Positions 13,791-62,462 are shown, counted from the first letter of the stretch. The stretch is DNA of 64,000 nt from an uncultured Candidatus Saccharibacteria bacterium (GCA_964350985.1 CAYGLK010000002.1:165406-229405); one strand, 5' to 3'. Notes: a model not told the origin generated them from the sequence alone. Numbers and translations: made by a program.

Positions 13791-13796
13791 TTGTAC

Positions 13797-47853: not shown

Positions 47854-47863
47854 TACTAAACTC

Positions 47864-48367: not shown

Positions 48368-48390
48368 AAAGTAAATATTATTTTGTAAGA

Positions 48391-48457: not shown

Positions 48458-48495
48458 TTTTTAGTATTTGTCTAATAAGTTAGATTTTTGAAAAT

Positions 48496-48867: not shown

Positions 48868-48912
48868 AGGTTGATTATAGCAAAAGACCTTGTGGGACGA
48901 CGCTAGAACGGT
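48868..48912 (-). promoter_or_regulatory. Junction module A copy 1 (degenerate): 22-mer GTTCTAGCGTCGTCCCACAAGG plus TGcTATAAT extended -10, 7 nt before the leaderless ATG of the HIT-like gene
   Basis: Aligned by eye with copies at 50653, 52009-52050 and 52715. Confidence 0.5.
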
Positions 48913-49017
48913 TTTGATCGAAGATGAAGATATAGAATAAAAAAACTCCCCTTGTACCTTTCGGCCTCGGGGAGATTATTTGTCCATATTCAGGCTGGAT
49001 TACAGTTACTTGGCTGC

Positions 49018-49557: not shown

Positions 49558-49613
49558 CTAAATAATTATTTATTTAGAAATGCATGATATACCAATTTAA
49601 ATATAGCTAATTT

Positions 49614-49634
49614 TTACTCTACTATGTCCAAAAT
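49614..49634. promoter_or_regulatory. Perfect palindrome ATGTCCAAAATATGGACAT upstream of TrmB-like gene 49671..50441 (candidate operator)
   Basis: 7-bp arms, 5-nt spacer, in an AT-rich promoter region. Confidence 0.4.
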
Positions 49635-49670
49635 ATGGACATAATAGATACTGTTTGATATCATTAAGCA

Positions 49671-50441
49671 ATGAAAAAGTGGACAAAACAGCAGTGTACA
49701 ATACTGGGAATAGACAACAAAGAAGCAAGGATTCTTGATGTATTATCTAGCACGGCAGGAACAAATACTGTAGCCGTAGCAGAAAAATCTTTTATTCCAC
49801 GCATAACTACCAGACGGATATTACAAAAATTAGTGAGCCGAGGACTAGTCACGCGAACCAAACTCAAACAATCAATCAACTGGACATTAGTAAGTCCAAC
49901 AGTATTCGAAAAGAAAATCGCTTCAATATTTCAAGACTCTGATTTGTTCCATACTAGAAACATCGGTTTATCAGAAGTAGGTAGTCTAAATATCTACAGG
50001 GGTGTGAAAGAGATGATTGAAAGTAACCGCAAAATACTTATCGCACATACTGGTGAACGAGTACTAGCCATAGAGCCAAATGGAATTTGGAAGCACTTTG
50101 CGAAAATTGATCCTGAGCCAGTCCATCAATTAAATCTGTTACGGAAAGAAAAACAAATATTAATAGAGATGGTAGCAGAGGAAGGCTTTAAAGAGGTTAT
50201 AGGCAATATTGTCCATCCAAATGTAATCAATTCATTTATGTCTCTCGCTGTTGATATAAAAGTGGTACCTGCTGGTACTCTAGATTCTGCAACAGAAATT
50301 CTCATCTTTCGCGACCAATTATTATTTATGGATTGGGCACATTTAGTAGCAGTAGAAGTTAAAAATCCTAGTACACTTCGTGTCATCAAAGCAATGTTTC
50401 GAACACTTCAATCGAGTGGCTACGACTATGCTTTGAAATAA
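49671..50441 (+). CDS. Putative wHTH transcriptional regulator, TrmB-like paralog
   Basis: 256 aa; N-terminal LGIDNKEARILDVLSSTAGTNTVAVAEKSFIPRITTRRILQKLVSRGLV resembles the TrmB/MarR winged helix. Palindrome ATGTCCAAAATATGGACAT lies 40 nt upstream. Confidence 0.45.
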   Translation: MKKWTKQQCTILGIDNKEARILDVLSSTAGTNTVAVAEKSFIPRITTRRILQKLVSRGLVTRTKLKQSINWTLVSPTVFEKKIASIFQDSDLFHTRNIGLSEVGSLNIYRGVKEMIESNRKILIAHTGERVLAIEPNGIWKHFAKIDPEPVHQLNLLRKEKQILIEMVAEEGFKEVIGNIVHPNVINSFMSLAVDIKVVPAGTLDSATEILIFRDQLLFMDWAHLVAVEVKNPSTLRVIKAMFRTLQSSGYDYALK

Positions 50442-50453
50442 ATACGCAGCTAC

Positions 50454-50652
50454 GGGTGAGAAGAATCGGCGCCAGTTCTAAATAAAATTCTTCGTAAACT
50501 CGAATTTATATTAAGAACCCGCTGCCCCGTCGCTTCTGTACGGACGCTATGCCTTGCGTCCGGCTTCGCCAGAAGCTCTCTTCGATTCTTCTCACACGCT
50601 ACAAACAGCAACGGCCTCAATACATTCGTATTGAGGCCGGCCGATTTGTGCG
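50454..50652. repeat. C-element copy 1 (199 bp): bounded by inverted 15-17-nt copies of the tRNA-Gly(TCC) 3' end (GGGTGAGAAGAATCG ... CGATTCTTCTCACACGC), internally multi-hairpin, then hairpin ggcctcaatac-attc-gtattgaggcc
   Basis: Identical (by eye, 199/199 or near) to 55184-55382. Begins 13 nt after the stop of the TrmB-like gene 49671..50441. Confidence 0.7.
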
Positions 50653-50674
50653 CCTTGTGGGACGACGTTAGAAC
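50653..50674 (-). repeat. Junction 22-mer copy 2 (AAGTTCTAACGTCGTCCCACAAGG on minus), abutting the NUDIX 50677 stop codon and the 199-bp C-element
   Basis: Read directly. Confidence 0.6.
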
Positions 50675-50676
50675 TT

Positions 50677-51099
50677 TTATTGATGATTTGCAGGATCAAA
50701 CATTCCTAAAAGTTTTTTAGGTCCGTCAAAAAGTTCCATACCCTCAACATCGTCTTTGTTAACAAAGCGTATTTCAATACATTCATCTGAAGGTGTGAAA
50801 TTTAAATGCTCTAATTTAGTTTCATACAAAACATTAGCGATCCTTATTTCGGGGTGGTTTGTACTCCTGCCAGTTATGAAGTAGCTAGGGTTACTTGCTA
50901 TGTAAACTGCTTTCAGTCCCATCTCTTCCATTAATTCTCTAGGTAAATCTTCTTGAGGTGTAACGTCCCAATCTAAACCACCGCCCGGTAATTCCCATCG
51001 CCCGTTCTCCTCTTTACAGAGTAAGAATTTATCTTTTGTCTCGTTTAGAACTAAAGCTTTAACACTGACACGATAAAAACAGTTTGGTATTTCACTCAT
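50677..51099 (-). CDS. NUDIX hydrolase
   Basis: 140 aa; Nudix box GGGLDWDVTPQEDLPRELMEEMGL. Preceded by family-B leader with 13-codon uORF. Confidence 0.75.
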   Translation of the reverse strand: MSEIPNCFYRVSVKALVLNETKDKFLLCKEENGRWELPGGGLDWDVTPQEDLPRELMEEMGLKAVYIASNPSYFITGRSTNHPEIRIANVLYETKLEHLNFTPSDECIEIRFVNKDDVEGMELFDGPKKLLGMFDPANHQ

Positions 51100-51116
51100 A
51101 AATATATTTTATGTTT

Positions 51117-51188
51117 TTAATAGGTGCCAAGACGCTGCGCCTCCGGCTCTGATAGCATTAAGTTACCTGAGGAGTGGTTATGTTGCAA
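51117..51188 (-). promoter_or_regulatory. Repeat family B copy 2: TTGCAA -35 box plus 13-codon leaderless uORF MLSEPEAQRLGTY* (51117..51158) 17 nt upstream of the NUDIX 50677..51099 start
   Basis: Direct sequence comparison with copy 1; uORF translated by hand. Confidence 0.55.
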
Positions 51189-51202
51189 GTTTTGAGCCTT
51201 AG

Positions 51203-52006
51203 TTAGTCACTAAAAAGCTCTTTTTTATATGTATTTTTTATTTGCTCAACTCCTTTATCTGTTTCAATTTCACAAGAAGAATAATTAGTCTCGTTTATAT
51301 AAAGTCGCTTGCTACCAAAATCAAAACGTTTGCACCAATCTCCATGAACATTATCTACTTTATGTTGGCTATTTTTATTTAAATATCCTATTTCTATAAC
51401 TGAACCAGAAATATTCGTTAGATCTAATAAATCTTGAATTGGAAAGAGGCTGTAGTAAATTGAAGGAATGCTTCCTGAAGCGGTAAATGTCTTCCTAATC
51501 AATACATCATACTGACCATGTTTATTTTTAACATCTGAAACAAAGTTTTGCTCTGCATTAGAAAGATTTGTGTCATTTTTGAGAATCTCTGTCTTCCAAG
51601 TAGTTTTATATTCTCCATTATTATGTTGAAAAGAAATATCACTCAAAATTTCTTCTGGCGCATTTGAATAGCTTTGGTTCCAAATGCAAAACTCTTTTTC
51701 ACTATCAAGTTTACGGGTAGTCTGAATAGTATGGGAATTTTTTCCGGTAGTATATTTAACAGTTTCCTTTACTTCATTGTCACCAATTTTAAGAAATCCA
51801 TTTTTTTCGAAATCAGTTAGGGTATCTAGTACGACCCACTCGTTTTGCGGAGGTAAACCAAAAACTTCTACCCACCCAAGAAAGGTGTGGTACCGAGGCA
51901 AAACAATAGAAACCTGTTTACCATTAATTTCTAATTTAACGTCGTAGTAGTAAACATTATCTTTATATTCTTTAAATGAAATGTCCAGATTGCCTATTTT
52001 CTTCAT
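51203..52006 (-). CDS. Hypothetical protein
   Basis: 267 aa, AT-rich, no motif recognised. Leaderless-type promoter module directly upstream. Confidence 0.45.
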   Translation of the reverse strand: MKKIGNLDISFKEYKDNVYYYDVKLEINGKQVSIVLPRYHTFLGWVEVFGLPPQNEWVVLDTLTDFEKNGFLKIGDNEVKETVKYTTGKNSHTIQTTRKLDSEKEFCIWNQSYSNAPEEILSDISFQHNNGEYKTTWKTEILKNDTNLSNAEQNFVSDVKNKHGQYDVLIRKTFTASGSIPSIYYSLFPIQDLLDLTNISGSVIEIGYLNKNSQHKVDNVHGDWCKRFDFGSKRLYINETNYSSCEIETDKGVEQIKNTYKKELFSD

Positions 52007-52008
52007 AG

Positions 52009-52050
52009 TTTGATTATAGCAAAACTAACCTTTTGGGATGATGTTAGAAC
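52009..52050 (-). promoter_or_regulatory. Junction module A copy 3: 22-mer overlapping the NUDIX 52044 stop (…EKF-TAA-C…) plus TGcTATAAT-N7-ATG of gene 51203..52006
   Basis: Read directly. Confidence 0.55.
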
Positions 52051-52508
52051 TTTTCTTGAGTATCAGGAAAAGCAAGATTATAAAATTGCTTGAAAAGAGG
52101 AGATATGTTACTTGGTAAGTTATCTTTATCAAACCAGCCTGCTTCTTTAATTTCGTTTAGGTCGATTGTAATTTCACCCTCATTAGCATTAGCAAAAAAG
52201 ACATGGATAGTGTCTTTCTTAAACTCCCCATTATATTTAATTGAACCAAGTTGCTTAATGTTTTTTAACGACAAACCAACTTCTTCTTTCACTTCTCGAA
52301 TTACAGCTTGCTCAAGACTCTCACCCATTTTGATTCCTCCACCAACAGTCGTAAGTAGAGGACTGCCGTATGTATGTTTAATTAAAAGTATTTTGTTTTC
52401 GAGAGTAACAACACATCGGACACCTTCAGTTGTTGGTCTTCTTAAAAACCAATAAGCCTGCAGTACAGGGTAACCAATTTTGTAGAGAGTAGCTTTACTG
52501 AAAATCAT
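52044..52508 (-). CDS. NUDIX hydrolase
   Basis: 154 aa; Nudix box GGGIKMGESLEQAVIREVKEEVGL. Ends ...EKF* inside the junction 22-mer. Confidence 0.75.
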   Translation of the reverse strand: MIFSKATLYKIGYPVLQAYWFLRRPTTEGVRCVVTLENKILLIKHTYGSPLLTTVGGGIKMGESLEQAVIREVKEEVGLSLKNIKQLGSIKYNGEFKKDTIHVFFANANEGEITIDLNEIKEAGWFDKDNLPSNISPLFKQFYNLAFPDTQEKF

Positions 52509-52528
52509 TCACCTACTATAGCAAACTT

Positions 52529-52714
52529 GCGGGTGAGAAGAATCGGGGTCAAGTTTCTAAATAAAATTGTTCGCTAGCTCCAATTTTACTAAGAACTTTC
52601 TCCCCGGACTCGCAGGCCCAAAGGGTCCCCTGCTCCGTCTTTCGATTCTTCTCACCCGCTACCAACGGCAAAGGCCGCCAATGCTTTCGCATTGGCGGCC
52701 TGCCGATTGGTGCA
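52529..52714. repeat. Divergent C-like element: same terminal inverted tRNA-Gly 3'-end copies (GCGGGTGAGAAGAATCG ... CGATTCTTCTCACCCGC) and same helix layout, with compensatory substitutions (aaaattg/caatttt vs aaaattc/gaattt; hairpin ggccgccaatgc-tttc-gcattggcggcc)
   Basis: Aligned by eye to copy 1; stems conserved, sequences differ. Confidence 0.55.
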
Positions 52715-52736
52715 CCTTGTGGGACGGCGTTAGAAC
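52715..52736 (-). repeat. Junction 22-mer copy 4, overlapping the stop of the HExxH gene (…GEKF-TAA-CGCCGTCCCACAAGG) and abutting the divergent C-element
   Basis: Read directly. Confidence 0.6.
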
Positions 52737-53182
52737 TTTTCTCCAACCTGAACCAAAGGGGCTTTATTTTCAATAAATGTTAGTTTTCGTTTATCTCTTA
52801 AATAATTGAACAAACTAAAGATTTGTCTATTTTTCAAATAATTTAAATTTTCTTGGTTGCGATAAGCTTCTTGTTCAACAGCTCGGTATAAGTATCTATT
52901 TTCCGGATTGAGTCTTAAGAGTAAACCAGAGTAAATATCTTCTATAAATCCCAGAACCAAACAACCAATGAATAAGGTTTCCAATTGTTGTCGGAAATGA
53001 ATTCTTTCATGGTTTATAAAGACAGGAGTTGCATATTCTTCTTTACGGACAAAAATAAAAGGAAATATTGCTGCCGCTTTTGCTTTTTGAGCCCCACTTT
53101 TACCAGATGAAAAATATCCAGCTATTTTTACTAGTAGCTCTGATTCAATAATATTTGCCCCATGTTTCCGACAGAGTTGCAT
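52730..53182 (-). CDS. Hypothetical protein with HExxH motif (possible small zinc hydrolase)
   Basis: 150 aa; HERIH motif. Ends ...EKF* inside the junction 22-mer. Confidence 0.4.
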   Translation of the reverse strand: MQLCRKHGANIIESELLVKIAGYFSSGKSGAQKAKAAAIFPFIFVRKEEYATPVFINHERIHFRQQLETLFIGCLVLGFIEDIYSGLLLRLNPENRYLYRAVEQEAYRNQENLNYLKNRQIFSLFNYLRDKRKLTFIENKAPLVQVGEKF

Positions 53183-53204
53183 TAGCAGATTATATCAAAA
53201 AACT

Positions 53205-53240
53205 TTAATGCGGGTGAGAAGATCGGTCACGAATCACTAA
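53205..53240. repeat. Solo element end GCGGGTGAGAAGATCGGTCACGAATCACTAAGTATATTTGTTC, directly upstream of the HExxH gene promoter
   Basis: Reverse complement recurs fused to a tRNA-Pro 3'-end copy at 61053-61117. Confidence 0.5.
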
Positions 53241-53306
53241 GTATATTTGTTCAAATAAAAAAACCGCGCAGTGGTACTGCGCGGGTTTGGTATACCATCA
53301 GGTTCT

Positions 53307-54248
53307 TCAACAGTTGCTAAGTTCGGCTCGAATCTGATTCACAGCCTTCTCCACGTACCCATCGTATGCGTCTAACTTTTTCACTTCTTCGTCATTGTAT
53401 AGGTCAATACCTATATTCATTGGTATCACAGAAATCTGCATGAACTGATGAGTAAGGGCGTGACTGAATAGGTACTTCGCCGGAGATCTCAGCGTCACTA
53501 CATCTTTCATGAGTATATCGATAGCCAAAAGTTCCTCCAGTACCTTACTTTCACTTTCTAACTGAAAGGTTTCACCTAGAGACACATGTCTGTTGCCAAA
53601 CAGACAGTGTTTTATTGTTGCTATGGTCGAGGGCTCGTACTTACCCTGACCTCTGTAGTCCTGAAAGAGGCGCCATAACACGAAACCACTCCAAAGTACT
53701 TTAATCTCCCTCTCGGCTAAACCCATCGCTTCGGTGTCGCCACCAAAGGACTTTTGTAACTCGAAAAGTTGTTTCATCTTTCTGACGAAGTACTTCTTTT
53801 GTATTACTGCTTCGTCTTCATCAAGATGAAACCGTTCTCTCCGCTCGAAATTGCCTCTAATACAGGGGAGTTTGGCACTCTGGCCGTTGTCCTGGTACCA
53901 GAGACTCATTGTCGCATCGACATAGAGTTGAGCCTGTTCTTTTGTGAACAGCTGCTTGTCTACCAGTTTTTGCGACACCAACAATGACAGAACTAACCGT
54001 GAAAGTGGCATGAATGTGTCCTCATAGAACTGCTGTTTCACTGCGTCGTAAAGCACATTGCTGCCGTAGAACTCAATAACTTCCTTGTTTGAGAAGTACA
54101 CATCGTCTATGGCGATTACAAAAGTCTGCCAGTAGACACTATCTCCGACAAAGCTGTAACCGGACTCCTCTATGCGCTGAACGATCTGCTTTGCATAGTT
54201 AAGTAAAAACGACTCAAATTCTTCAGGTTTTTCGAATCCTTTAAACAT
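53307..54248 (-). CDS. Hypothetical protein
   Basis: 313 aa; terminator hairpin 53259-53284 follows on the minus strand. Confidence 0.45.
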   Translation of the reverse strand: MFKGFEKPEEFESFLLNYAKQIVQRIEESGYSFVGDSVYWQTFVIAIDDVYFSNKEVIEFYGSNVLYDAVKQQFYEDTFMPLSRLVLSLLVSQKLVDKQLFTKEQAQLYVDATMSLWYQDNGQSAKLPCIRGNFERRERFHLDEDEAVIQKKYFVRKMKQLFELQKSFGGDTEAMGLAEREIKVLWSGFVLWRLFQDYRGQGKYEPSTIATIKHCLFGNRHVSLGETFQLESESKVLEELLAIDILMKDVVTLRSPAKYLFSHALTHQFMQISVIPMNIGIDLYNDEEVKKLDAYDGYVEKAVNQIRAELSNC

Positions 54249-54423
54249 TGTTTTTCCTCCCTTTATGGGCTTTGTGTAAACGAACTGTTTTAACCGATAT
54301 TAAGATACAATATAAAATACTATATGTCAATAATCTCGTCACTTAGTCACGTCTATATTCAGAATACTGTTGTTTTATAATAGCATTTATGTTATATTTA
54401 TTTTGACAAAATTGTCGTCATTT

Positions 54424-55155
54424 ATGAAAAATAACTACCTAACTGCTTCCGGTCTTGATGAAAAGGAATCTACCGCCTATATAGCTCTACTTGAGCTCGG
54501 AGAGGCAACCATGAGTGAACTTACAAAGAAATCAGAACTAAAAAGGTCGACTCTATATTTTATTGTTGAAGCACTTCACAAAAAAAGATTGATTGGTATT
54601 GTAAAAAAGGGGAAGAAAACCGTCTACTCGGCCGAAGACCCCAAAAGGCTCCTTGAGCAAGCCGACGAGAACCGACGCAATCTTGAATATGCGATGCCAG
54701 AACTTTTATCTGTTGCCAACAATATTGTCAAAAAGCCAAAGGTGAGATTTTTTGAAGGGGTGGACGGTATCAAAGAAGTGTACAGGGATATTCTTAGATA
54801 CCCTGATAATAAGATTTGCGCTTGGGTATCGGAGTCGATGATTACAGAATTTGATTCAAGCTTTATTACTGACCACTATATTCCGAAACGGCTTGAAAAG
54901 AAAATTTGGGCAGAGGTGATTGCCTCTGATACTACTGTTGGTAAGGATTTTAAGTCTAAGGATCTTGAGGCGCTACGAAAAACAAGGCTGCTCGATGAGT
55001 CGCAATTCCCTCTTTCGATTGAAATTAGTCTCTATGGTAAAGATAAAATTGGTTTTATGTCGATAGATGACAAACTTGGCCTCATTGTGGAAAGTAAACC
55101 CATAGCTGACACATTAAAGAGCATATTCAAAGCACAATGGGATTCTCTGTCTTGA
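54424..55155 (+). CDS. TrmB family transcriptional regulator
   Basis: N-terminal wHTH TAYIALLELGEATMSELTKKSELKRSTLYFIVEALHKKRLI plus C-terminal TrmB-like domain. Start set at MKNNYL. Confidence 0.55.
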   Translation: MKNNYLTASGLDEKESTAYIALLELGEATMSELTKKSELKRSTLYFIVEALHKKRLIGIVKKGKKTVYSAEDPKRLLEQADENRRNLEYAMPELLSVANNIVKKPKVRFFEGVDGIKEVYRDILRYPDNKICAWVSESMITEFDSSFITDHYIPKRLEKKIWAEVIASDTTVGKDFKSKDLEALRKTRLLDESQFPLSIEISLYGKDKIGFMSIDDKLGLIVESKPIADTLKSIFKAQWDSLS

Positions 55156-55183
55156 TCGTATTCATAAAATAAAGTTAAATTTC

Positions 55184-55382
55184 GGGTGAGAAGAATCGGC
55201 GCCAGTTCTAAATAAAATTCTTCGTAAACTCGAATTTATATTAAGAACCCGCTGCCCCGTCGCTTCTGTACGGACGCTATGCCTTGCGTCCGGCTTCGCC
55301 AGAAGCTCTCTTCGATTCTTCTCACACGCTACAAACAGCAACGGCCTCAATACATTCGTATTGAGGCCGGCCGATTTGTGCG
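55184..55382. repeat. C-element copy 2 (199 bp), directly downstream of TrmB gene 54424..55155
   Basis: Near-identical to 50454-50652. Confidence 0.7.
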
Positions 55383-55590
55383 GGTGAGAAGATCGGTCAC
55401 GAGTTACTAACTATAATAGTTCGCTTCGCTCCTTTTCTAGTAAGTACTCTCGACCCCAGCTCGCTCATTGCTACGCAATATCGCTGCGCTTTTCGATTCT
55501 TCACGCAAAGCGCGCAGGCGCTTTGCTTCACCCGCACACTATGTTTCAAACGAAAAAGCCCCTTGAAGGGCTTTTTCGGAAACATATGTG
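55382..55590. repeat. Second element between C-copy 2 and tRNA-Gly(TCC): starts GCGGGTGAGAAGATCGGTCACGAGTTAC (same variant end as 53209-53240), ends with an interrupted tRNA-Gly 3' end (ttcgattcttc-[acgcaaagcgcgcaggcgctttgc]-ttcacccgc), then hairpin/T-run 55546-55578
   Basis: Read directly; the shared 5' segment with 53209-53240 is about 26 nt. Confidence 0.5.
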
Positions 55591-55661
55591 TGCGGGTGAG
55601 AAGAATCGAACTCCCGACTACTGCTTGGAAGGCAGTCGTTTTACCACTAAACTACACCCGC
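55591..55661 (-). tRNA. tRNA-Gly (anticodon TCC)
   Basis: Manual fold of the reverse complement: acceptor GCGGGTG/CACCCGC, D-arm GTTT-AGTGGTA-AAAC, anticodon loop CTTCCAA, T-loop TTCGATT, discriminator A; no encoded CCA. Confidence 0.8.
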
Positions 55662-55846
55662 AAGTGAGGTACTAAAAGAAAGTTTATTTTCTTTTATGTG
55701 CCGAATGCAGCAGGTGAAAGCTATGCTTACACCTCGCAACACTCAACTACCAGCTTACTCTAACTAAACCGTTAAACAATTCAGTACGCACGATTCTACC
55801 ACCATTGGGCTAAAAATTCCACCAGGGCTTGCTATACTATTTAAAT

Positions 55847-56941
55847 ATGCAATTTTTAACCGAAGTTTTTATTACGATCATTACAGCTTACTTGGCTTTC
55901 ACAAACCAGCTAGCAGACACTATTATTAATGTAATTGGAGCTGATGAAGAGGCTGAAGAAGTAGAAATGGTTGAAGATGAGGAAGGAATGAGTCTTAGAA
56001 ACCTACCCAGCCAGTTTGGCTCTAAGAGTCTACCTGACATCTTGCTTCGAAGTGCAGCTTACCAGAGAGCTTCTGCCCTAACAGCTGATGACTCTGGCGT
56101 TGTTTCAGAAGATCCCGCTGAAGCGTTGGTAAACATCTTTTGTACTTTCACTAGTCCAACAACTATCAGAACGACAACTGGTTCTGGCTTCTTCGTTCAT
56201 AGTGACGGTGTAATACTCACGAATGCTCATGTGGCTCAATACCTACTCTTAGGTTCTACTGACATTTTAGGTGACGCAGAGTGTATCGTCAGACAAGGAA
56301 ATCCTGCTAGTCCTAAGTATCAAGCCGGCCTTCTCTACATACCTCCAACCTGGGTTCAGGAGAACGCTAGTCTAATTAATGACTCAGCTCCAACTGGAAC
56401 TGGAGAGCGAGACTATGCTCTGCTATACATAACTAAGTCAATCGACAATTCTCCTCTACCAGATACCTTCCCGGCCCTGTCAGTGGATTCTGAGTTATTG
56501 CCTCGTACTGCTTCAGGAAAAGAAGTAACTGCTGCTGGCTATCCGGCTACTGCCTTGATTAAAAGTGGCCCTAGCGCACAACTTTTAGCTGTACTATCTA
56601 CTACCACTATCTCTGAGTTGTATACGTTTGGATCAAACTACGCTGATGTCTTTTCTATTCGCGGTAGTACAGTTGGAGCTGAAGGATCTTCAGGTGGTCC
56701 GATAGTAAATAAAGATGGTGACGTTATCGGAATGATTGTTACTCGTGGAGATGATAAGACTGATGGAGTAGGAAGTTTGAGAGCTATTACTACCTCTTAT
56801 ATTCACCGAACCATCCTCGAAGAAACCGGATTTTCTTTAGCGAGAAATATTAGTGGTAACTTAGCTTCAAGATCACAAATATTCACGAGCACAGTCGCTC
56901 CGTTTATGATTGATCTGCTATCTCAAGAGCTTGGTAACTAA
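55847..56941 (+). CDS. Trypsin-like (S1 family) secreted serine protease
   Basis: Catalytic His context FFVHSDGVILTNAHV and Ser context GSSGGPIV; N-terminal TM/signal. Start likely MQFLTEV. Confidence 0.75.
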   Translation: MQFLTEVFITIITAYLAFTNQLADTIINVIGADEEAEEVEMVEDEEGMSLRNLPSQFGSKSLPDILLRSAAYQRASALTADDSGVVSEDPAEALVNIFCTFTSPTTIRTTTGSGFFVHSDGVILTNAHVAQYLLLGSTDILGDAECIVRQGNPASPKYQAGLLYIPPTWVQENASLINDSAPTGTGERDYALLYITKSIDNSPLPDTFPALSVDSELLPRTASGKEVTAAGYPATALIKSGPSAQLLAVLSTTTISELYTFGSNYADVFSIRGSTVGAEGSSGGPIVNKDGDVIGMIVTRGDDKTDGVGSLRAITTSYIHRTILEETGFSLARNISGNLASRSQIFTSTVAPFMIDLLSQELGN

Positions 56942-56996
56942 TAAACAAAGATATAAAAAAGCGGCCCATGGGGCCGCTTTTTTATATCTCTTTAAA

Positions 56997-58388
56997 CTAA
57001 ACCTCTAAGACTTCCTCTTCCTCTTTGTCTTCCTCATCCTTTTCTTCAGTTGGATCAGTACTAGTAGATTTTTCCTCTACCTTTGGTTCAGTATCTTTTA
57101 TCTGAGGTTCTGTTGGCTTAGCGATCTTAAGCATAGCTGCAACGTCTGAGATGATACTGTAGGCTTCATTACTAACTTTTTCTAGCGTATCTATATCTTG
57201 ATCTGCTGCTTCAAGTAGCGCTGGCAACAGAGCTAACTTTTCTTCAGTTTCGCTAATTGCTAATTCAACTTTTTCTTTTTGATCAGCACTTACTTTGATT
57301 TCTGCAGTTGAGCTTGAAGTAGTTGTAGCGTTTATATCAGCTAAAACAGATTCTAGTGTTGCTTCAGTTGTAGTAATTTGTTGCTTTATCAGAGCTAAAC
57401 GTTGCTCTTTAGTTAAAGTATCTGGAACCAAATCATCAATTGTTAAGTTGGTTCGTACATCGATATTTGTCATGAAAGCGATCAAGCGATGGATTTGTTG
57501 CAGTGCAACAACTAAGTCTTTCTTTGCAGCCAACTCATCTACTTCAGATAAAGCCATCGCTTCTGAAATACGAGTATCAATATCACCTAGTCTATTTGTG
57601 ACAGTACTCTTCTCGTCACTAGTAGCAGAGTCTTCAATTCCTTTTACTAGTTCATAAGCTCGAGTGGTCTCACTCTCTACTTTAGCCAAGAGTCGACTGT
57701 ATGCAGGAAGGTCAATATCAGCAGTTACTGGTTCAGCGGCTTGAGTCGCAGACAATATCGCAGCAATTTTATTGATAGACTTTCCAGCAACTTCTGTCTC
57801 GCTTCGATGCATTAGAGAAGTAGTCTGGATATCAAGAGCAGTGTTAAGACCGATTGACGCTAGTGTAGCTTCGTCTTTGTCAGACAACTTCAAGTTTTCA
57901 ATTTCTTTTCGAGCATTATCACTATGAACCTTCACAGCTGAGACAACACTGGCTTCTACCTCTTCGGTTAGCTTACCTTCGTCAGCCAATAGTCTAGCTT
58001 CAGCGATACGTCGATTAAGTAGTTCTGTTTCCCAAACCACTTTCTCATAAGATCCTCGAGCTAAAGTTCCACGCACTTCTTCATTAAAACCAACCTTAAC
58101 TGCGTACAAGGTATCGCCTGGCACCGCTTTCTCGGCAAAATAAGAAACACTTACTACAAAAACCATGGCCATGACACCACTCCATCGTAAAACTCTCCAT
58201 TTATTAAAATTAAATAAGATGAAATTTTGACCAGCTACAGATACATTCTCACTAGAAGTCTTTAGACTTGCTGGCAAAGGATGGTACTCCATATAAGAAA
58301 CAACTCGCTCTTTGAGCTCACGTTTCTCAGCGACACTCAAATGAATGTCCTGGGCTTTTTTATTAAATTGTTGGCTAAATCTTTTCAT
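56997..58388 (-). CDS. Putative anti-sigma factor-like membrane protein (single TM, long coiled-coil/acidic extracytoplasmic region)
   Basis: 463 aa; sits immediately downstream of an ECF sigma factor. N-terminal cytoplasmic segment, one TM, acidic C-terminal tail. Confidence 0.45.
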   Translation of the reverse strand: MKRFSQQFNKKAQDIHLSVAEKRELKERVVSYMEYHPLPASLKTSSENVSVAGQNFILFNFNKWRVLRWSGVMAMVFVVSVSYFAEKAVPGDTLYAVKVGFNEEVRGTLARGSYEKVVWETELLNRRIAEARLLADEGKLTEEVEASVVSAVKVHSDNARKEIENLKLSDKDEATLASIGLNTALDIQTTSLMHRSETEVAGKSINKIAAILSATQAAEPVTADIDLPAYSRLLAKVESETTRAYELVKGIEDSATSDEKSTVTNRLGDIDTRISEAMALSEVDELAAKKDLVVALQQIHRLIAFMTNIDVRTNLTIDDLVPDTLTKEQRLALIKQQITTTEATLESVLADINATTTSSSTAEIKVSADQKEKVELAISETEEKLALLPALLEAADQDIDTLEKVSNEAYSIISDVAAMLKIAKPTEPQIKDTEPKVEEKSTSTDPTEEKDEEDKEEEEVLEV

Positions 58389-58393
58389 TTATT

Positions 58394-58972
58394 TTATGTT
58401 TTTCTTTTTTTGGTGGCTGCTGCCTCCCCTTCCTCTATTTTGTTCCTTAAAAGTTTCAAACCGCGGTGGATCCGGACTGAGACGACATTTTCCGACTCTT
58501 CGATCAGGGCCGCGATTTCTTTTGGTCCTAGCTCGTCAACGAAACGGAAGAGTAACACTTCTTTATATTCTTCTGGCAAGTCAGCCAAAAGCTCAAAGGC
58601 CTTACGCCCATCAATTGTCGCCGCCAGGGCCTCAACTGTGCTTTCGGACAATTCTGAGAAAGAACCTTCATCTACCCCCTCAACTTCAAGTAGAGCATCG
58701 AGTGAGGCTTCTTTTTTCTTACGGTACTCATCAATGATGAGGTTATTTAAGACCTTATATAAAAATGACCGATAAGAATCAATCTCATGTCCAGCTCGAA
58801 TGTATGACCATACCTTAGTAAAAGTATCGTGTACTACATCGATAGAGCGTTCGCGATTGCTAATCCTAATTGCCGAATGGCGGAAAAGGGCCTCACTATA
58901 CTCTTCAAAAGCTTTCAAGAAGCGTTCCTCCTGGCTTTCTGCTATGTCGTTTGTCTTTTTTAGACTCGCCAT
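58394..58972 (-). CDS. RNA polymerase sigma factor, ECF (sigma-70 family group IV)
   Basis: Region 2 (FTKVWSYI...YLYKVLNNLIIDEYRKKK) and region 4 HTH (LPEEYKEVLLFRFVDELGPKEIAALIEESENVVSVRIHRGLKLLR). Confidence 0.8.
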   Translation of the reverse strand: MASLKKTNDIAESQEERFLKAFEEYSEALFRHSAIRISNRERSIDVVHDTFTKVWSYIRAGHEIDSYRSFLYKVLNNLIIDEYRKKKEASLDALLEVEGVDEGSFSELSESTVEALAATIDGRKAFELLADLPEEYKEVLLFRFVDELGPKEIAALIEESENVVSVRIHRGLKLLRNKIEEGEAAATKKRKT

Positions 58973-59036
58973 GGTATGAAAACCATTATATACGTAGACG
59001 CCCGAATACACGAATTCTTACTGAGCATTATTGATA

Positions 59037-59654
59037 TTAGGCTTTTTTATTGATTGCCTCGATTAATTCAGGCAATTCCCCTACTAAAAAGTGGTTTTTG
59101 TCTTCAAAACTAACAAATTGGGCCTGATCCAGGTATTTTTTGAACTCAAGACTGTGATCATAAGGAACGATAAAATCATCTTTGGAGTGCCAAATTGACA
59201 CCTTAGACTGGTCGACAGATAAATTAGCCAGTGACTGGGGGTCAAACTGAAAACTCCCACAATCATTACCGTCTGGATCAGCACAGGTTCCACAAGGAGC
59301 TGCCAATAAGAAAACTTTATTGACCTCTACTGGCAATTTATTTTCACTTAGATATTTAGCCAAAAACATTCCTCCAAGAGACCAGCCAATCAGAGTCACG
59401 TCTTCTCTTAGGTATTCAAAGTGTCTTTCAAACCAAATAGCCCATTCATCATACTGGGCATTAGTCTTGTTTGGCATACTAGGCATAAAAACCTCATATT
59501 CTTCACCAAGATCAGTAGATAGTGATTTAGTCCAAAAGTCTTTTGAAACTGTATCTGGTAAATTTCTGACAGGAACAGTTTGTAAATAGCGTAAAAAATC
59601 CTCTCTCTTGGAGAAAGCATCTCCTCCATGAATAAAAAATACTTGTTTTTTCAT
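59037..59654 (-). CDS. Alpha/beta serine hydrolase (YdeN/RBBP9-like)
   Basis: 205 aa; nucleophile elbow GWSLGG, FIHGG oxyanion region. Confidence 0.6.
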   Translation of the reverse strand: MKKQVFFIHGGDAFSKREDFLRYLQTVPVRNLPDTVSKDFWTKSLSTDLGEEYEVFMPSMPNKTNAQYDEWAIWFERHFEYLREDVTLIGWSLGGMFLAKYLSENKLPVEVNKVFLLAAPCGTCADPDGNDCGSFQFDPQSLANLSVDQSKVSIWHSKDDFIVPYDHSLEFKKYLDQAQFVSFEDKNHFLVGELPELIEAINKKA

Positions 59655-59745
59655 ATGTTTATGATATTTGATTATTTAAGTCAGACTTGCTTTTTTATGA
59701 AAGTATGATATAAAATATATCGACTTAATTTTGGAGACCTTGTTA

Positions 59746-59904
59746 TGAACAAGGAGAAAGAAGCCCCGCAAACTGGCCCTCCTGAAAGCTTTGCTCCGGA
59801 AACTCCGGAGCAATTGGAGAAATTCCAACAAATGAGGCAGCTGGCGGAGACGCTTGGGAAGGCGATCAGGGAAGCTAACCCAGGGGCAGACAAGAAGAAT
59901 TGAT
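59746..59904 (+). CDS. Possible small protein (52 aa) MNKEKEAPQTGPPESFAPETPEQLEKFQQMRQLAETLGKAIREANPGADKKN
   Basis: GGAG 8 nt upstream of the ATG, and an intrinsic terminator hairpin (gggagcatcttgctccc + T7) at 59927-59955. Below the ORF-track size cutoff. Confidence 0.3.
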
Positions 59905-59953
59905 CAGGAAGAACCTGCATCATATGTTATGGGAGCATCTTGCTCCCATTTTT

Positions 59954-60526
59954 TTAATTTAAGTTACTTTTACGATCTGAAGCTTCTTTCATCAATCTAT
60001 TCCTTTCTGCTTCCTCTCCTACTCCCAATACAGACCCTTCATTATCCACCACCGCAATCAGAGGCTTTGATTCATCAATAGATTTCCTTGCCTCCATCCA
60101 GGTATCCATAATTGATTCTTTACTATTAGGTTTACGGTTCTCAAGAAACTTAAAAAACATTTTAATTTCACCTAAAGAAATTTTGGAGCCGAAACGATCT
60201 GAAAACATTTGTTGCAAGACCGCGGGATCAATTTTTTCTAGCATCCTAAATCCCGCCTCTTCGTTGGCTTTACGATCCAAAAAAGCAAGGCCAATGGCTT
60301 TTTTTTCAGATAATTCTTCACCGTCTCTCTCTGCCTGTTTTATCAAAACCTCAGCTCTAGCAGATATTGATTCATAATCATCGCTAGATAAAAGTTTTAC
60401 GTCTGCCCCTTCAACCAAGCCCATTTCTATCAAACAATCCCGAGCTGACTCTGTGTCACCGAATTCACTAAACCCAGAAAAAGGTGCTCTTGTTTCAAAT
60501 CTATGATTTTCATTATTTCCGTGCAT
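59954..60526 (-). CDS. Hypothetical protein
   Basis: 190 aa, acidic, no motif. Confidence 0.4.
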   Translation of the reverse strand: MHGNNENHRFETRAPFSGFSEFGDTESARDCLIEMGLVEGADVKLLSSDDYESISARAEVLIKQAERDGEELSEKKAIGLAFLDRKANEEAGFRMLEKIDPAVLQQMFSDRFGSKISLGEIKMFFKFLENRKPNSKESIMDTWMEARKSIDESKPLIAVVDNEGSVLGVGEEAERNRLMKEASDRKSNLN

Positions 60527-60845
60527 AAGTATGTTCTAAATTTAAATTTTAAATTAACGATGCTGCCAAACAGACTGCTTACTTCGATTATATCAGACCA
60601 AGTTGGATAACAGTAATTCACTCGCATTTTTTGATGATGGGTGGTATTATCTCAGACACAAATCAATGTGTACTTTGGTTTGTATAGCAAGAGCTTCCCG
60701 GGGTGTATCTTCGATACAACCCTTCTTCGCTCGGTCATGGCGTGGCACAAGCAGAGCTTGTCATTGCTTCAATGTAATTTTATTTAACGAAAGCAAGCTT
60801 TCTTAAATAAAATTACCTTAAAGCCACGCCGCGACCCTCACTCAT

Positions 60846-60916
60846 CGGGGTGTAGCATAGTGGTAGTGTACACGGTTTGGGACCGTGTGGTCCGGGTTCG
60901 ATTCCCGGCTCCCCGA
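60846..60916 (+). tRNA. tRNA-Pro (anticodon TGG)
   Basis: Acceptor CGGGGTG/CTCCCCG (one T-T mismatch at 6:67), anticodon stem-loop CACGG-TTTGGGA-CCGTG, T-arm CCGGG-TTCGATT-CCCGG, discriminator A, then hairpin/T-run. Confidence 0.7.
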
Positions 60917-60949
60917 CAAATAAAAAGGCGGCTTTATGCCGTTTTTTTA

Positions 60950-61117
60950 TTTGTTGGGGAGAAAACGTGCCCTGCGGCACGTTTGACCGGAATCGAAAAG
61001 CGCAGTGATGCCTTTAGGCGAGCGAGCTGTGGTCAAGAACACTTAGTAGATTTGGAGTCGAAGACGAACAAATATACTTAGTGATTCGTGACCGATTCCC
61101 GACTCCCCGACAAACAT
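60950..61117 (+). repeat. Repeat unit 1 downstream of tRNA-Pro (hairpin aaaacgtgccctgcggcacgttt...), ending with GAACAAATATACTTAGTGATTCGTGACCGA fused to a second copy of the tRNA-Pro 3' end (TTCCCGACTCCCCGACAAA) and its own terminator 61120-61160
   Basis: tRNA 3' end duplicated 19/20; about 100-nt unit is homologous to 61148-61260. Confidence 0.55.
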
Positions 61118-61147
61118 AAAATCCTGTAGTCTTTTAAGATTACAGGA

Positions 61148-61260
61148 TTTTGTTGTTTTCAGAGAAGAAAACGTGCCATGTGGCACGTTTGTACGGAATC
61201 TAAAATTGCAGCGATGTATTAGACGAGTGATCTTGGGTTAAGGACGCTTAGTAATTTGGG
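61148..61260 (+). repeat. Repeat unit 2 (gaaaacgtgccatgtggcacgtttgtacggaatctaaaattgcagcgatg...), diverged tandem copy of unit 1
   Basis: Aligned by eye, about 70-75% identity over about 100 nt, including a conserved hairpin. Confidence 0.45.
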
Positions 61261-61405
61261 TTAAGCAAAAGATATCCTCAGCGATTTATTATCGATTACT
61301 GACCCAAAGTAAAGTTGCGGGATAGGGATTATCTTTTCACATGAAACACTACAAATATGTTTCACGTGGTACATATGCTCATATTTACAGACGTTACACG
61401 TGTAA

Positions 61406-61822
61406 CTATTCCAAGATTATATTTGGTAAGTACTTAACAGAAGCATATTTCTCACTCAGAACAACCTTTACAGCAAGGACGTCTATTTGCCACTCCCCTT
61501 CATACTTATATTCCATCAACCAAGACTCTATGGCTCTAGAGAGCTTCTTTAGCTTATAGGAATGGACATTATCCTCTGGTCTCCAGGTACCACGTGAAAC
61601 ACTACCATTTAAATAAGTTTTTGTTTCATATGAAACTGTTTTAACCTCAACGAAGTGAACCTTATTAGTTCCACGTGCAACAATATCGATTTCTCCCCAT
61701 TTTTTAAGATAATTCCTGTTCAAGATATTAAAACCTTTTCTTTTTAAGTAGTTAGAGGCAATTTCCTCACCATAATTACCAATAACTTTATTATTTTTCT
61801 TATTTAAAGTTACTTCTGTCAT
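61406..61822 (-). CDS. YraN/UPF0102 family putative endonuclease
   Basis: 138 aa; GEEIASNYLKRKGFNILNRNYLKKWGEIDIVA...HFVEVKT matches the UPF0102 signature. Confidence 0.65.
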   Translation of the reverse strand: MTEVTLNKKNNKVIGNYGEEIASNYLKRKGFNILNRNYLKKWGEIDIVARGTNKVHFVEVKTVSYETKTYLNGSVSRGTWRPEDNVHSYKLKKLSRAIESWLMEYKYEGEWQIDVLAVKVVLSEKYASVKYLPNIILE

Positions 61823-62180
61823 TAATTTCAGTATATCACTAGAATTTACCTATGTTCTACGTGTAACAGGTAATAAGTGTTTCACGTGGCACACAAAATC
61901 AACATAGCTTGTTTTATATAGCTATTTGTCTTTTATAATTTGTCCTTTATCCACCTATACACCTACTTTTCCACAGTTCTGTTTATATCTTGTAAGTTTG
62001 TCCTTTAGGAAGTTTCTTCGAATTTATTGTATTGGGGGACAGGGGTAATCGCCAGCTTACTGCCGCAGTACACCTTTTGAATATATTCTTCCTTATAGTC
62101 AGAATCTATCTCAAAAGCTCTTCCGATCACCCAAGCAAAATTGAAAAAGACCAGGGTAGAAACCCTGATCTTTCTCAATT

Positions 62181-62205
62181 TGTGCGGCCAGGGGTAATCG
62201 AAACC
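62181..62205 (-). repeat. Perfect 25-bp direct repeat of the tRNA-Gly(GCC) 3' half (TGTGCGGCCAGGGGTAATCGAAACC), 209 bp from the intact copy at 62390-62414; a third partial copy (CAGGGGTAATCG) at 62040-62051
   Basis: Read directly; classic att-like duplication of a tRNA 3' end. Confidence 0.7.
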
Positions 62206-62391
62206 TGACGGTCACCAACGTCCTTTGCTTCAAGTATTCGCAAAGCGACGTGGTGCCGCGGGTCACGCCTCACTTGTTCGTAACCTCACAGTGTTCTGGC
62301 GGTTTCTCATACACAATGGGTGCGCAGGCACCCATTTACCAACCCTTACATATATAAAAATGACCCAAATTAAGGGTCATTTTTATATATG

Positions 62392-62462
62392 TGCGGCCAG
62401 GGGTAATCGAAACCCCGACTGTTGCTTGGCAAGCAACCGTTATACCACTTAACCATGGCCGC
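62392..62462 (-). tRNA. tRNA-Gly (anticodon GCC)
   Basis: Reverse complement folds: GCGGCCA/TGGCCGC acceptor, D-arm GTTA-AGTGGTA-TAAC, anticodon loop TTGCCAA, T-arm GGGGT-TTCGATT-ACCCC. Terminator hairpin follows. Confidence 0.8.

Follow-up and report, generated by a model that had tools for sequence, protein, structure and literature searches.

Gene-less ~200-nt folded units behind tRNA and tmRNA genes of Patescibacteria: a candidate family of mobile cassettes

A 30-mer repeated at tRNA 3' ends in the window (the whole stretch of 64,000 nucleotides analysed here, from an uncultured Candidatus Saccharibacteria bacterium) is the right end of a ~200-nt, tightly folded element without an ORF, joined to tRNA 3' ends in the T-loop; a preliminary description had rightly taken it for the end of an element. 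Scars had been proposed at three tRNA genes of the window; at least eight copies were found there behind three tRNA genes, seven as cores detected with a covariance model and one truncated (53222-53252). At a probability of roughly 0.55, we regard the units as a family of ~200-nt ORF-less mobile cassettes that integrate into the T-loop/3' end of tRNA and tmRNA genes of Patescibacteria. A gene-less element behind the tRNA and tmRNA genes of this group (CPR) has apparently been undescribed so far.

The exact 30-mer, GAACAAATATACTTAGTGATTCGTGACCGA, occurs twice in the window, at 61066-61095 (plus strand) and 53223-53252 (minus strand), with 0 occurrences expected by chance (100 shuffles), and the identity stretches to a 31-mer (61066-61096, plus; 53222-53252, minus). 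Its fusion to two different tRNA 3' ends was confirmed, the coordinates first given (61053-61082 and 53211-53240) having to be raised by 12-13 nt. The plus copy continues into TCCCGACTCCCCGACAAA (61097-61114), which repeats the tRNA-Pro(TGG) 3' end 180 nt past the real gene (60846-60916), and the minus copy into CTTCTCACCCGC (53221-53210), the tRNA-Gly(TCC) 3' end. The related variant suspected at about 55382 is real: its end (55392-55422, minus) likewise joins CTTCTCACCCGC (55391-55380). As had been described, the junctions lie inside the T-loop, all three directly after the CGAT. The tRNA-Gly 3' end motif occurs nine times in the window (0.06 expected), and in eight other species the exact 31-mer adjoins Gly, Pro, His-like and Glu ends. 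The short duplicates of tRNA ends represent 3' ends that have been displaced. In 40 of 44 cases the direct repeat runs from CGAT to a point no more than 4 nt off the end of the tRNA, and the trailers diverge beyond. The flank after CGAT begins with T in 89, C in 16 and GAAC in 14 cases; the junction is not perfectly precise, which is unusual for conservative site-specific recombination. At three loci (L148, L183, L092) the repeat extends over the trailer hairpin as well, and in L148 a foreign T-stem strand is located in the distal copy, so that a simple model needs additional recombination steps.

The features of the window are given below, with the evidence in brackets (R1, covariance model of the core):

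50453-50652, minus: B3 unit, same sequence as B2 and 5 kb away from the tRNA (R1; blastn)
52529-52659, minus: B1 unit (R1, 75 bits for 52536-52654)
53210-53221, minus: displaced tRNA-Gly 3' end copy after G3 (direct reading; motif count)
53222-53252, minus: G3, right end only, equal to the 31-mer (R1 partial match, 11 bits)
53253-55182, minus: G3 cargo segment (Pfam, NCBIfam)
53307-54248, minus: orphan 313-aa gene in the G3 cargo (own terminator at 53264-53284)
54370-55155, plus: TrmB-like regulator gene in the G3 cargo (Pfam, NCBIfam)
55183-55382, minus: B2 unit, without hairpin 1 (R1, 35.7 bits for 55189-55324)
55380-55391, minus: displaced tRNA-Gly 3' end copy after G1, CTTCTCACCCGC, T60 missing (direct reading; repeat comparison)
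55386-55505, minus: G1 core, three-way junction with hairpins 2 and 3 (R1, 96.7 bits, E 4e-28)
55506-55590, minus: G1 left arm (direct reading; also found in L165 and L169)
55591-55661, minus: tRNA-Gly(TCC), intact (ARAGORN; Rfam tRNA, 72.6 bits)
60846-60916, plus: tRNA-Pro(TGG), intact (ARAGORN; Rfam)
60917-60983, plus: P1 left arm, terminator palindrome and hairpin 1 with CTGC loop (direct reading; repeat comparison; fold)
60984-61102, plus: P1 core (R1, 98.5 bits, E 1e-28)
61097-61153, plus: displaced tRNA-Pro 3' end copy (61097-61114) and terminator (61116-61153) (direct reading; terminator scan)
61160-61310, plus: P2, older decayed tandem copy behind P1 (R1, 32.4 bits for 61190-61302)
62034-62051, minus: C2, T-loop and T-stem of tRNA-Gly(GCC) in another decayed copy (repeat comparison)
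62183-62345, minus: C1, distant relative of the element (R1, 15.2 bits, E 0.02)
62392-62462, minus: tRNA-Gly(GCC), intact (ARAGORN; Rfam)

In tRNA-Gly(TCC), the T-loop CGAT is followed by the 3' part of the gene and then by an element-borne trailer. The left arm of G1 comprises, in this order, the trailer, an intrinsic-terminator hairpin, the trailer complement, the 5' strand GCGGGTGAAG (antisense to the 3' end of the tRNA) and hairpin 1, whose loop reads CTGC; the right end of the G1 core, ...TTAGTAACTCGTGACCGAT, terminates at 55392. B2 has its own terminator at 55342-55369 (terminator scan) and is 100% identical to B3 over 200 nt (blastn self-comparison), while the core of B1 is closed by a 17-nt terminal stem, GCGGGTGAGAAGAATCG / CGATTCTTCTCACCCGC. 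What is left of G3 corresponds to the 3' half of hairpin 3, CTTAG and the Pb 3' strand. For the orphan protein of its cargo, only two homologues were found among 5.8 billion proteins, and Logan contig L001 corresponds to 53223-55212, ending at the repeats. In the P1 palindrome (60909-60961), the 3' strand of the tRNA acceptor pairs with TTTGTTGGGGAG; in the P1 core the 31-mer is located at 61066-61096 and the junction CGAT|T at 61096/61097, and the terminator at 61116-61153 is read as the original one. P2 is 78% identical to the left part of P1. C1 carries a CTGC hairpin and the right end GGTGACCGTCAGG, similar to right ends in L165 and L172, and terminates in duplicated T-loop and 3' end sequence of tRNA-Gly(GCC) (62183-62205).

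Read in the direction of the tRNA, a unit starts with a replacement 3' end for the tRNA, spanning T-loop position 60/61 through the discriminator and another 1-3 nt, followed by its own trailer and intrinsic terminator and by a strand antisense to trailer and 3' end, often with a CTGC-loop hairpin next. The remainder is a conserved three-way-junction core of ~123 positions, which contains the direct repeats ACTTAGTA / ACTTAGTGA, and the right end ...CTTAGTRAYTCGTGACCGAT; as conserved ends, GGAATCGAAAG... and ...CTTAGTRAYTCGTGACCGAT were observed. Replacement 3' end, terminator and antisense strand jointly form one hairpin, the stretch from T-loop to AATCG, with a median of 84 nt and a z-score of -10.8. 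The replacement 3' end is brought by the unit itself: trailer and terminator after copy 1 are common to the window, L165 and L169, whereas the sequence after copy 2 differs. In the 37 cases with differing flank and tRNA, it is the upstream tRNA end to which the 5' strand pairs (4.35 of 5, versus 2.7 of 5 for the flank). The terminal stems vary with the tRNA (Gly, Pro, His, tmRNA and others), and in this one family both hairpin arms match tRNA 3' ends of at least 14 kinds. Cargo-bearing copies retain just the last 30-45 nt of the core, the cargo of the one 2-kb copy being the TrmB-like regulator and the orphan protein.

The fold of the core is conserved by compensatory change. In the alignment, 89% of cells are paired, against 25-39% with partners slid as a control, the covariation score reaches 0.30 (slid controls, 0.085 at most), and two-sided changes amount to 232 cells, where shuffles give 88 +/- 8. 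Retention of a G.T wobble by 68 of 70 sequences identifies the tRNA-sense strand as the one that folds, and the single-sequence fold of P1 reproduces the comparative structure (z -8.25). Such a conserved, covarying single-strand fold is unlike an ordinary double-stranded att site. In Rfam 15, whose scope includes tRNA-like RNAs, tmRNA, group I/II introns, self-cleaving ribozymes and IS605-/HEARO-type RNAs, the core had no match even at E up to 10; only the tRNA and tmRNA genes passed.

A 19-nt end pattern, TTAGTRAYTCGTGACCGAT, matches at least 119 stretches of GTDB genomes, and among the matches listed every lineage named in the titles belongs to the Patescibacteria. Copies are preceded by at least 14 tRNA species and by tmRNA: out of 171 nhmmer matches, 86 follow a tRNA on the same strand at a distance of at most 160 nt, 18 follow tmRNA and 19 another copy, and the orientation is always that of the tRNA. 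Inspection of the tRNA-Gly loci of relatives for empty sites, as had been suggested, revealed no single fixed arrangement: of 23 syntenic tRNA-Gly(TCC) sites, 14 carry this element, five a hybrid, truncated or other body type, and four are empty. This pattern of presence and absence could partly be due to loss. The unit of the window shares 91% identity with those of L165 and L169, which belong to other species, as against 67-68% for the adjacent protease gene. Repeated insertion, also part of the preliminary description, is borne out by tandem arrays; in 10 of 14 of them, and in all three of the window (13 of 17 overall), the copy nearest the tRNA is better preserved. As to the excision proposed alongside, no excised or circular form of the element was seen.

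In the reading that we favour, integration would join the first base of the unit to the T-loop CGAT of the gene, so that the tRNA would stay intact and terminated, with the original 3' end pushed behind the element. Repeated insertion at one place would produce arrays with the oldest copies distal; some units bear cargo genes. The cis-acting substrate may be a folded single strand, either single-stranded DNA or RNA, and the terminal stem of its fold would be a duplex that reproduces the target from T-loop to 3' end. The joining would be performed by machinery encoded elsewhere or by the host, with the units then probably reshuffled by recombination among copies and with incoming DNA.

Several other origins were weighed against such a cassette family. 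Strong covariation, a conserved G.U pair, purine-rich junctions and extreme sequence conservation across Patescibacteria are suggestive of RNA, and together with the constant orientation, a terminal helix that copies acceptor and T stems and a terminator after the displaced 3' end they would suit a small tRNA-like non-coding RNA gene with a cellular function, its acceptor/T-type helix being processed by RNase P, RNase Z and the CCA-adding enzyme. We consider this unlikely: an intrinsic terminator stands directly upstream of the core, promoters are neither conserved nor enriched (30 found, 29.8 expected), the 5' strand tracks the upstream tRNA end and not the flank that would close the RNA, GNRA/UNCG loops account for 2 of 140 loops in hairpins 2 and 3 versus 8 of 56 terminator tips at the same loci, and no Rfam family matches. 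Moreover, many copies are decaying, truncated or tandem (P2, C2, L162, L166), which is unexpected for a needed gene. The spread of such a gene by transformation and recombination anchored in conserved tRNA sequence, which would explain position and duplicated 3' ends, is similarly doubtful, even though the imprecise junction and the T60 absence common to the window, L165 and L169 favour homology-driven transfer over a fixed crossover. A chance repeat or an assembly artefact, for which one could invoke that short-read contigs of the same sample end at these repeats, is refuted by the expectation of 0 chance matches and by the same architecture in more than 100 independent assemblies.

The preliminary description had proposed an integrative or transposable element acting at the T-loop, and expected a full-length element with an adjacent recombinase. 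The first proposal probably holds for a mobile, integrative cassette family and not for a conventional integrase island, and the expected element was not encountered: in 1.15 Mb around ~200 copies there is no recombinase gene close by and none enriched near copies, with only two XerD-like ORFs, both kilobases from any element; near the 119 loci neither a recombinase cluster nor a large ORF family recurring beside copies was found, and a Pfam scan of the window ORFs detected no integrase in the element. It is thus improbable that the repeats are att scars or arm regions left by conventional integrase-encoding islands or prophages entering and leaving tRNA genes, although the repeat spans T-loop to tRNA 3' end like the attL and attR repeats that tRNA-integrating islands reportedly have, one copy holds 2 kb of cargo, and the ACTTAGTA / ACTTAGTGA direct repeats could be putative arm-type binding sites. 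The units are ~200 nt long and self-complete, BLAST against INPHARED phages and PLSDB plasmids gave no element match, pattern scans of IMG/VR gave only chance matches in coding sequence, and long-range compensatory changes and a strand-specific G.T pair are unexpected for a double-stranded protein-binding site. Strand specificity of the fold, hairpins at the ends and insertion 3' of a short conserved target would equally recall a miniature IS200/IS605-like element that an HUH transposase would move as single-stranded DNA and that would insert 3' of (T)TCGAT. We regard this origin as very improbable, since a phmmer search with the IS608 TnpA seed over 3758 ORFs (1.15 Mb) returned no homologue, no large ORF family recurs beside the copies, and the end hairpins are mutually unlike, the left one varying with the tRNA. 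In that reading, the core could be derived from a TnpB-type guide RNA with the flanking tRNA 3' end as guide: the flank after the scaffold is indeed the sequence beside the target motif in the empty site, but the supposed guide is base-paired by the 5' strand, and no IS605-related Rfam family matches.

Compared with known systems, the cassettes resemble tRNA/tmRNA islands and prophages with tyrosine integrases in joining at the T-loop, in a replacement 3' end that leaves the gene intact, in the displaced 3' end as a direct repeat on the far side, in the use of tmRNA as a target and in tandem accretion; the T-loop is reportedly one class of sublocation among tRNA/tmRNA integration sites. They share with such islands, whose repeats begin in the T-loop or anticodon loop, the tRNA 3' repeat from T-loop to tRNA end; scans of INPHARED, PLSDB and IMG/VR yielded no free phage or plasmid form with an attP. 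They differ in having no integrase, a non-coding unit of ~200 nt with a covarying single-strand fold, an antisense strand that makes the tRNA 3' end a hairpin (median 84 nt), and one family serving at least 14 tRNA species. Tycheposons of Prochlorococcus likewise form tRNA-anchored islands by one cargo-bearing insertion after another, in which degraded remnants and partial tRNA repeats are left, but are said to encode their own recombinases and replication genes and to be kilobases long, features by which they differ from the element. MITEs and the palindrome-associated miniatures of IS200/IS605 are similarly small, ORF-less, multi-copy, structured and reliant on functions in trans; here, the terminal stems copy the local tRNA in place of fixed inverted repeats, there is no target duplication of fixed length, and no matching transposase was found. 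IS200/IS605 elements use target sites of 4-5 nt, insertion taking place on their 3' side and leaving no duplication, and have similar subterminal hairpins on either side; the units described here follow (T)TCGAT but are bordered by a repeat of 13-17 nt, and their end hairpins differ.

CTX-phi and similar elements exploit the host Xer recombinases via a folded single-stranded attP. The likeness would be that a folded single strand rebuilds a double-stranded target for an enzyme that the element does not encode; in contrast to these IMEX, which integrate at dif by XerC/D, the sites here are tRNA T-loops and 3' ends, and there is no phage genome. Integron cassettes also grow into arrays at one proximal site, can be ORF-less, and each end in a recombination site whose conservation resides mainly in its single-strand fold; the final part of this fold comes from the beginning of the following cassette. 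In the units described here, IntI, attI and Pc are absent, each array is headed by a tRNA or tmRNA gene with no tyrosine recombinase beside it, the element lacks a GTTRRRY pair of the kind found in R''/L''/L'/R' boxes, and a highly conserved three-way junction takes the place of the simple imperfect hairpin of attC. The strand-specific single-strand fold shared with attC may accordingly be understood as a likeness in how the element works, and not as membership.

An exact 30-mer occurs twice in the window (0 expected in shuffled sequence). It forms the right end (...GTGACCGAT) of an ORF-less cassette of about 200 nt that lies behind tRNA and tmRNA genes. The preliminary description had recognized the repeat in two exact copies but placed both 12-13 nt too low; its observations that these ends and a variant of them are fused to 3' ends of two different tRNAs, with junctions in the T-loop, were borne out, all three junctions falling after CGAT.

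Right ends in the window and the tRNA 3'-end copies joined to them
61066-61095, plus strand: 30-mer of copy P1, leading into a second tRNA-Pro(TGG) 3' end at 61097-61114
53223-53252, minus strand: 30-mer of copy G3, leading into a tRNA-Gly(TCC) 3'-end copy at 53210-53221
55392-55422, minus strand: variant end, leading into a tRNA-Gly(TCC) 3'-end copy at 55380-55391

The identity between the P1 and G3 ends reaches 31 nt. As this 31-mer was found exactly in eight other species, beside Gly, His-like and Glu ends, it represents a conserved subfamily end and need not reflect a recent event.

The DNA of the window is ordinary chromosomal sequence that includes genes for ribosomal proteins and elongation factors. 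Its four tRNA genes (Gly-TCC, Pro-TGG, Gly-GCC, Arg-TCG) all lie within the last 9 kb, and the tRNA-Gly 3'-end motif occurs nine times against 0.06 expected. Copies were scored with R1, a covariance model of the 123-position core; the first 50 kb of the window contained no convincing match (E below 0.1), and every copy has the orientation of its tRNA.

Copies in the window and their covariance-model scores
P1, behind tRNA-Pro(TGG): 98.5 bits
G1, behind tRNA-Gly(TCC): 96.7 bits
B1, behind tRNA-Gly(TCC): 75 bits
B2 and B3, behind tRNA-Gly(TCC): 35.7 bits each
P2, behind tRNA-Pro(TGG): 32.4 bits
C1, behind tRNA-Gly(GCC): 15.2 bits, E 0.02
G3, behind tRNA-Gly(TCC), right end only, truncated: 11 bits

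In the direction of the tRNA, a full copy comprises the tRNA 3' end, a trailer, an intrinsic terminator hairpin and a strand complementary to trailer and tRNA 3' end, followed in most full copies by a CTGC-loop hairpin, and then by the segment G(A/G)AATCGAAAG, the variable hairpin 2, CGAGSCGGGGTCGMGAGYACTTAG, the variable hairpin 3 and CTTAGTRAYTCGTGACCGAT; it finishes with a second tRNA 3'-end copy, after which a different trailer follows. G1 and P1 share about 75% identity; in each, the terminal strands match the tRNA that it follows, and compensatory changes distinguish the CTGC-hairpin stem of one from that of the other. B2 and B3, 5 kb apart, have 100% identity across 200 nt. In G3, a 2-kb segment with a TrmB-like regulator and an orphan 313-aa protein, only the last 31-44 nt of the element are left.

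Downstream of tRNA-Gly(TCC), at 47348-55182, small cargo-like genes (four NUDIX paralogs, a HIT protein, two unrelated TrmB-like regulators and several orphans) are mixed with element copies in what looks like a tRNA-anchored cassette array. The 24-nt motif AAGTTCTAACRYCRTCCCAMAAGG occurs four times (0 expected), each time directly 3' of a small gene; two copies adjoin a B-type unit at ...AAGG|YGCAC, and the motif may mark where a cassette of another type ends, or be a tRNA-like 3' end in decay.

Copies of the 24-nt motif
48888-48911, minus strand
50653-50676, minus strand
52029-52052, minus strand
52715-52738, minus strand

Further along, the gene of a YraN/UPF0102 nuclease (61406-61822, minus strand) is flanked by a 38-nt inverted repeat (74%; 61338-61375 and 61851-61888) containing GTTTCACGTGG, a motif present at 61359, 61590, 61671 and 61879 (four against 0.67 expected); GTTTCAYRTGAAAC motifs resembling it are found close to tRNA-Pro and tRNA-Gly in three loci from other assemblies or metagenomes (L170, L172, L175; such comparison loci carry L-numbers throughout). 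At the other end of the window the str/S10 cluster (334-18650) is split, with S12 and S7 at 17549-18650, EF-G, EF-Tu, S10 and L3 at 334-5475, and about 12 kb of unrelated genes between them, including a MazF-like toxin (8173-8508) and several orphans.

Few mobile elements have been recognized in the tiny genomes of Patescibacteria. A 19-nt right-end pattern was found in at least 119 stretches of GTDB assemblies (one genome per species), and the lineages named in the titles of the listed matches are all Patescibacteria (Saccharibacteria, Paceibacteria, Yonath-, Nomura-, Campbell-, Wolfe-, Kaiser- and Peribacteria); the covariance model identified 147 copies in 100 of the listed loci. A same-strand tRNA lies at most 160 nt upstream of 86 of the 171 nhmmer matches, and the others are behind tmRNA (18), behind another copy (19), at a locus edge (10) or elsewhere (38). 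The tRNA species with an element are Gly, Arg, His, Cys, Pro, Glu, Thr, Trp, Lys, Met, Ala, Asn, Val and Leu. In loci selected for the element, the cassette follows 106 of 210 tRNA and tmRNA genes. The object is a family of ORF-less structured cassettes across many Patescibacteria lineages. With Rfam 15, at gathering and permissive thresholds, nothing was found for the core in the window and nine canonical loci, and the literature searches yielded no description of the element; a structured nucleic-acid family with 123 model positions and clear covariation appears to be undescribed.

For the fold of the core, 70 sequences were aligned. RNAalifold predicted two helices and the base of hairpin 2; the full structure was then drawn up by the analyst and scored on the alignment. 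The structure is closed onto the flank by a terminal helix P_T (GGGAATCG with CGATTCCC), inside which lies a three-way junction with two further helices: Pa, bearing hairpin 2, and Pb (GGTCGMGAGYAC with GTRA-YTCGTGACC, one bulged A), which continues through a symmetric internal loop (CTTAG/CTTAG) into hairpin 3. Paired cells amount to 89% (25-39% with slid partners), the covariation score is 0.30 (at most 0.085 slid, 0.13 in shuffles), and both sides are changed in 232 cells, compared to 88 +/- 8 in shuffles. The single-sequence fold of P1 is exactly the specified structure, with a z-score of -8.25 with both RNA and DNA parameters. The tRNA-sense strand is the one that folds, as shown by a G.T wobble kept in 68 of the 70 sequences and by the rarity of A.C cells. 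A hammerhead-type junction was ruled out, the junction strands being 4, 2 and 0 nt long, and so was a retroviral-type primer-binding site, since the antisense strand pairs with the trailer bases of the gene and not with CCA.

The folded form may be RNA or single-stranded DNA, and the two parameter sets yield an identical fold. The conserved wobble pair, the purine-rich junctions and a tRNA-like terminal helix with a terminator after it argue for RNA. For DNA speak the terminator immediately 5' of the core, the lack of promoter enrichment (30 found, 29.8 expected) and the loops of hairpins 2 and 3, which are dominated by the triloops GAA and GTA and include GNRA/UNCG loops in 2 of 140 cases, compared to 8 of 56 terminator tips in the same loci.

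For a comparison of orthologous sites, 28 metagenome contigs were collected solely via the protease gene adjoining tRNA-Gly(TCC), with 23 sites scorable. These sites differ between relatives: 14 carry this element, five (L161, L162, L166, L170, L176) either a hybrid or truncated copy or a different body type that shares the left arm and the T-loop logic, and four are empty (L167, L178, L187, L188). At tRNA-Pro, an element is present in 1 of 10 of the protease-selected contigs, and it belongs to a subfamily differing from P1. With the units of L165 and L169, G1 shares 91% identity, against 67-68% for the adjacent protease gene, and L169 also has a counterpart of B2 at 90% identity. The copy nearest the tRNA is better preserved in 10 of 14 arrays, as it is in all three within the window. 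Transfer between lineages and repeated tRNA-proximal insertion fit these data, and the core idea of the preliminary description, an integrative element joined in the T-loop whose repeated insertion displaces tRNA ends, is supported.

At least one other body type (...GAGCTRGATT...CCAATTGGGGTACTGAAACTGTAAGTTTCGATT) exists, in L166, L170, L176 and L183/L184; its left arm is the one described here, made up of replacement 3' end, terminator palindrome, antisense strand and hairpin 1, and it finishes in a T-loop copy. Since hybrids with the present core exist (L073, L118, L130, L161), the element bodies are modular. The organism of the window was found in one sequencing run only, ERR3534985, and its contigs break at repeats; short-read Logan contigs from this run (L001, L261, L262) are identical to the window and stop exactly at element repeats, so the elements fragment assemblies at tRNA genes.

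What the unit carries can be read from its repeats. In 40 of 44 cases the direct repeat of the tRNA 3' part ends at most 4 nt from where the tRNA does; beyond it the trailers diverge. Trailer and terminator directly after the tRNA are common to the window, L165 and L169, whereas the sequence after the distal copy differs. Where the distal copy is unlike the tRNA (n=37), the 5' strand of the element pairs with the 3' end of the tRNA itself at 4.35 of 5 T-stem positions, and with the distal copy at only 2.7 of 5. From the T-loop CGAT, through tRNA end, trailer, terminator and antisense strand to AATCG, the sequence forms one long hairpin (median 84 nt, z -10.8) with 16 of its first 17 nt paired. 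Taken together, these features indicate that the unit supplies a replacement 3' end, a terminator and an antisense strand, the original 3' end being the distal copy. In a circularized unit, all three arms of the fold would be capped and the joint would lie inside the terminal stem, which could then be a duplex copy of the target from T-loop to 3' end. That both hairpin arms match the new tRNA might be explained by template switching in the near-palindrome.

A staggered-cut target-site duplication was ruled out as the general rule, because the repeat ends at the tRNA end and the trailer of the first copy travels with the element; it still fits L092, L148 and L183. In L092, L148 and L183/L184 the repeat extends over the trailer hairpin, and in L148 a foreign T-stem strand is found in the distal copy, with proximal copy and antisense strand native. 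The base after CGAT is T in 89 cases and C in 16, and GAAC follows in 14, so that the junction shifts by a base or more. Such exceptions suggest that copies often recombine with one another and with incoming DNA, or that the joining is unlike conservative site-specific exchange. The right end of 14 copies (L067, L083, L094, L097, L138, L140 and others) leads not into a tRNA 3' end but into GAACCC, which is GGGTTC (T-stem 5' strand and loop start) in reverse complement; most of these copies are behind tmRNA and several in tandem arrays.

The full-length element with a recombinase that had been anticipated was not found in about 1.15 Mb of loci around copies. Within 3.5 kb of copies no recombinase family is enriched, and the recurrent neighbours (SmpB, FtsH, HU, protease, YraN) are ordinary synteny. 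A phmmer search of 3758 ORFs from the 1.15 Mb, using XerD, lambda Int, resolvase and IS608 TnpA as seeds, returned only two XerD-like ORFs, kilobases from any copy. Pattern scans of IMG/VR yielded chance matches in unrelated coding sequence for a 16-mer and a 15-mer and none for a 19-mer, and BLAST of phage and plasmid collections gave no match to the element. As new recombinase, the 313-aa cargo protein was ruled out, being without family and with one homologue besides itself; as engine, so were the YraN nuclease, whose positions vary and resemble synteny with tRNA-Pro and tRNA-Gly, and a GIY-YIG nuclease, with ORFs at three loci only, too few for the family. All three GIY-YIG ORFs are fused to the right end, their stop being the TGA of CGTGACC.

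Small GIY-YIG ORFs in elements
L050, 32-337: behind tmRNA
L109, 6218-6565: behind tmRNA
L053, 4182-4448: no tRNA detected upstream of the copy

If this reading is true, the element would be a widespread carrier of small cargo genes and a means by which essential tRNA genes have their 3' ends and terminators rewritten; it would account for assembly breaks at tRNA genes in Patescibacteria genomes, and the 123-position family could join RNA and repeat libraries. It would also pose a sharp question, namely which enzyme recombines the T-loop, and whether via RNA or single-stranded DNA, that is answerable in genetically tractable Saccharibacteria. By the defining tests of each, the element falls outside tRNA-integrating islands, integron attC cassettes and folded single-stranded attP sites, yet these are closest to it in possible mode of action. 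A far-reaching view, which we consider improbable, would make it a new class of mobile element without a protein of its own: the core would be catalytic, or a mimic recruiting a universal host enzyme of tRNA handling or DNA repair, the tRNA-mimicking hairpin would serve as a built-in, re-writable target guide, and the family would be a nucleic-acid-only, tRNA-anchored counterpart of integron cassettes, shaping small gene arrays in Patescibacteria genomes.
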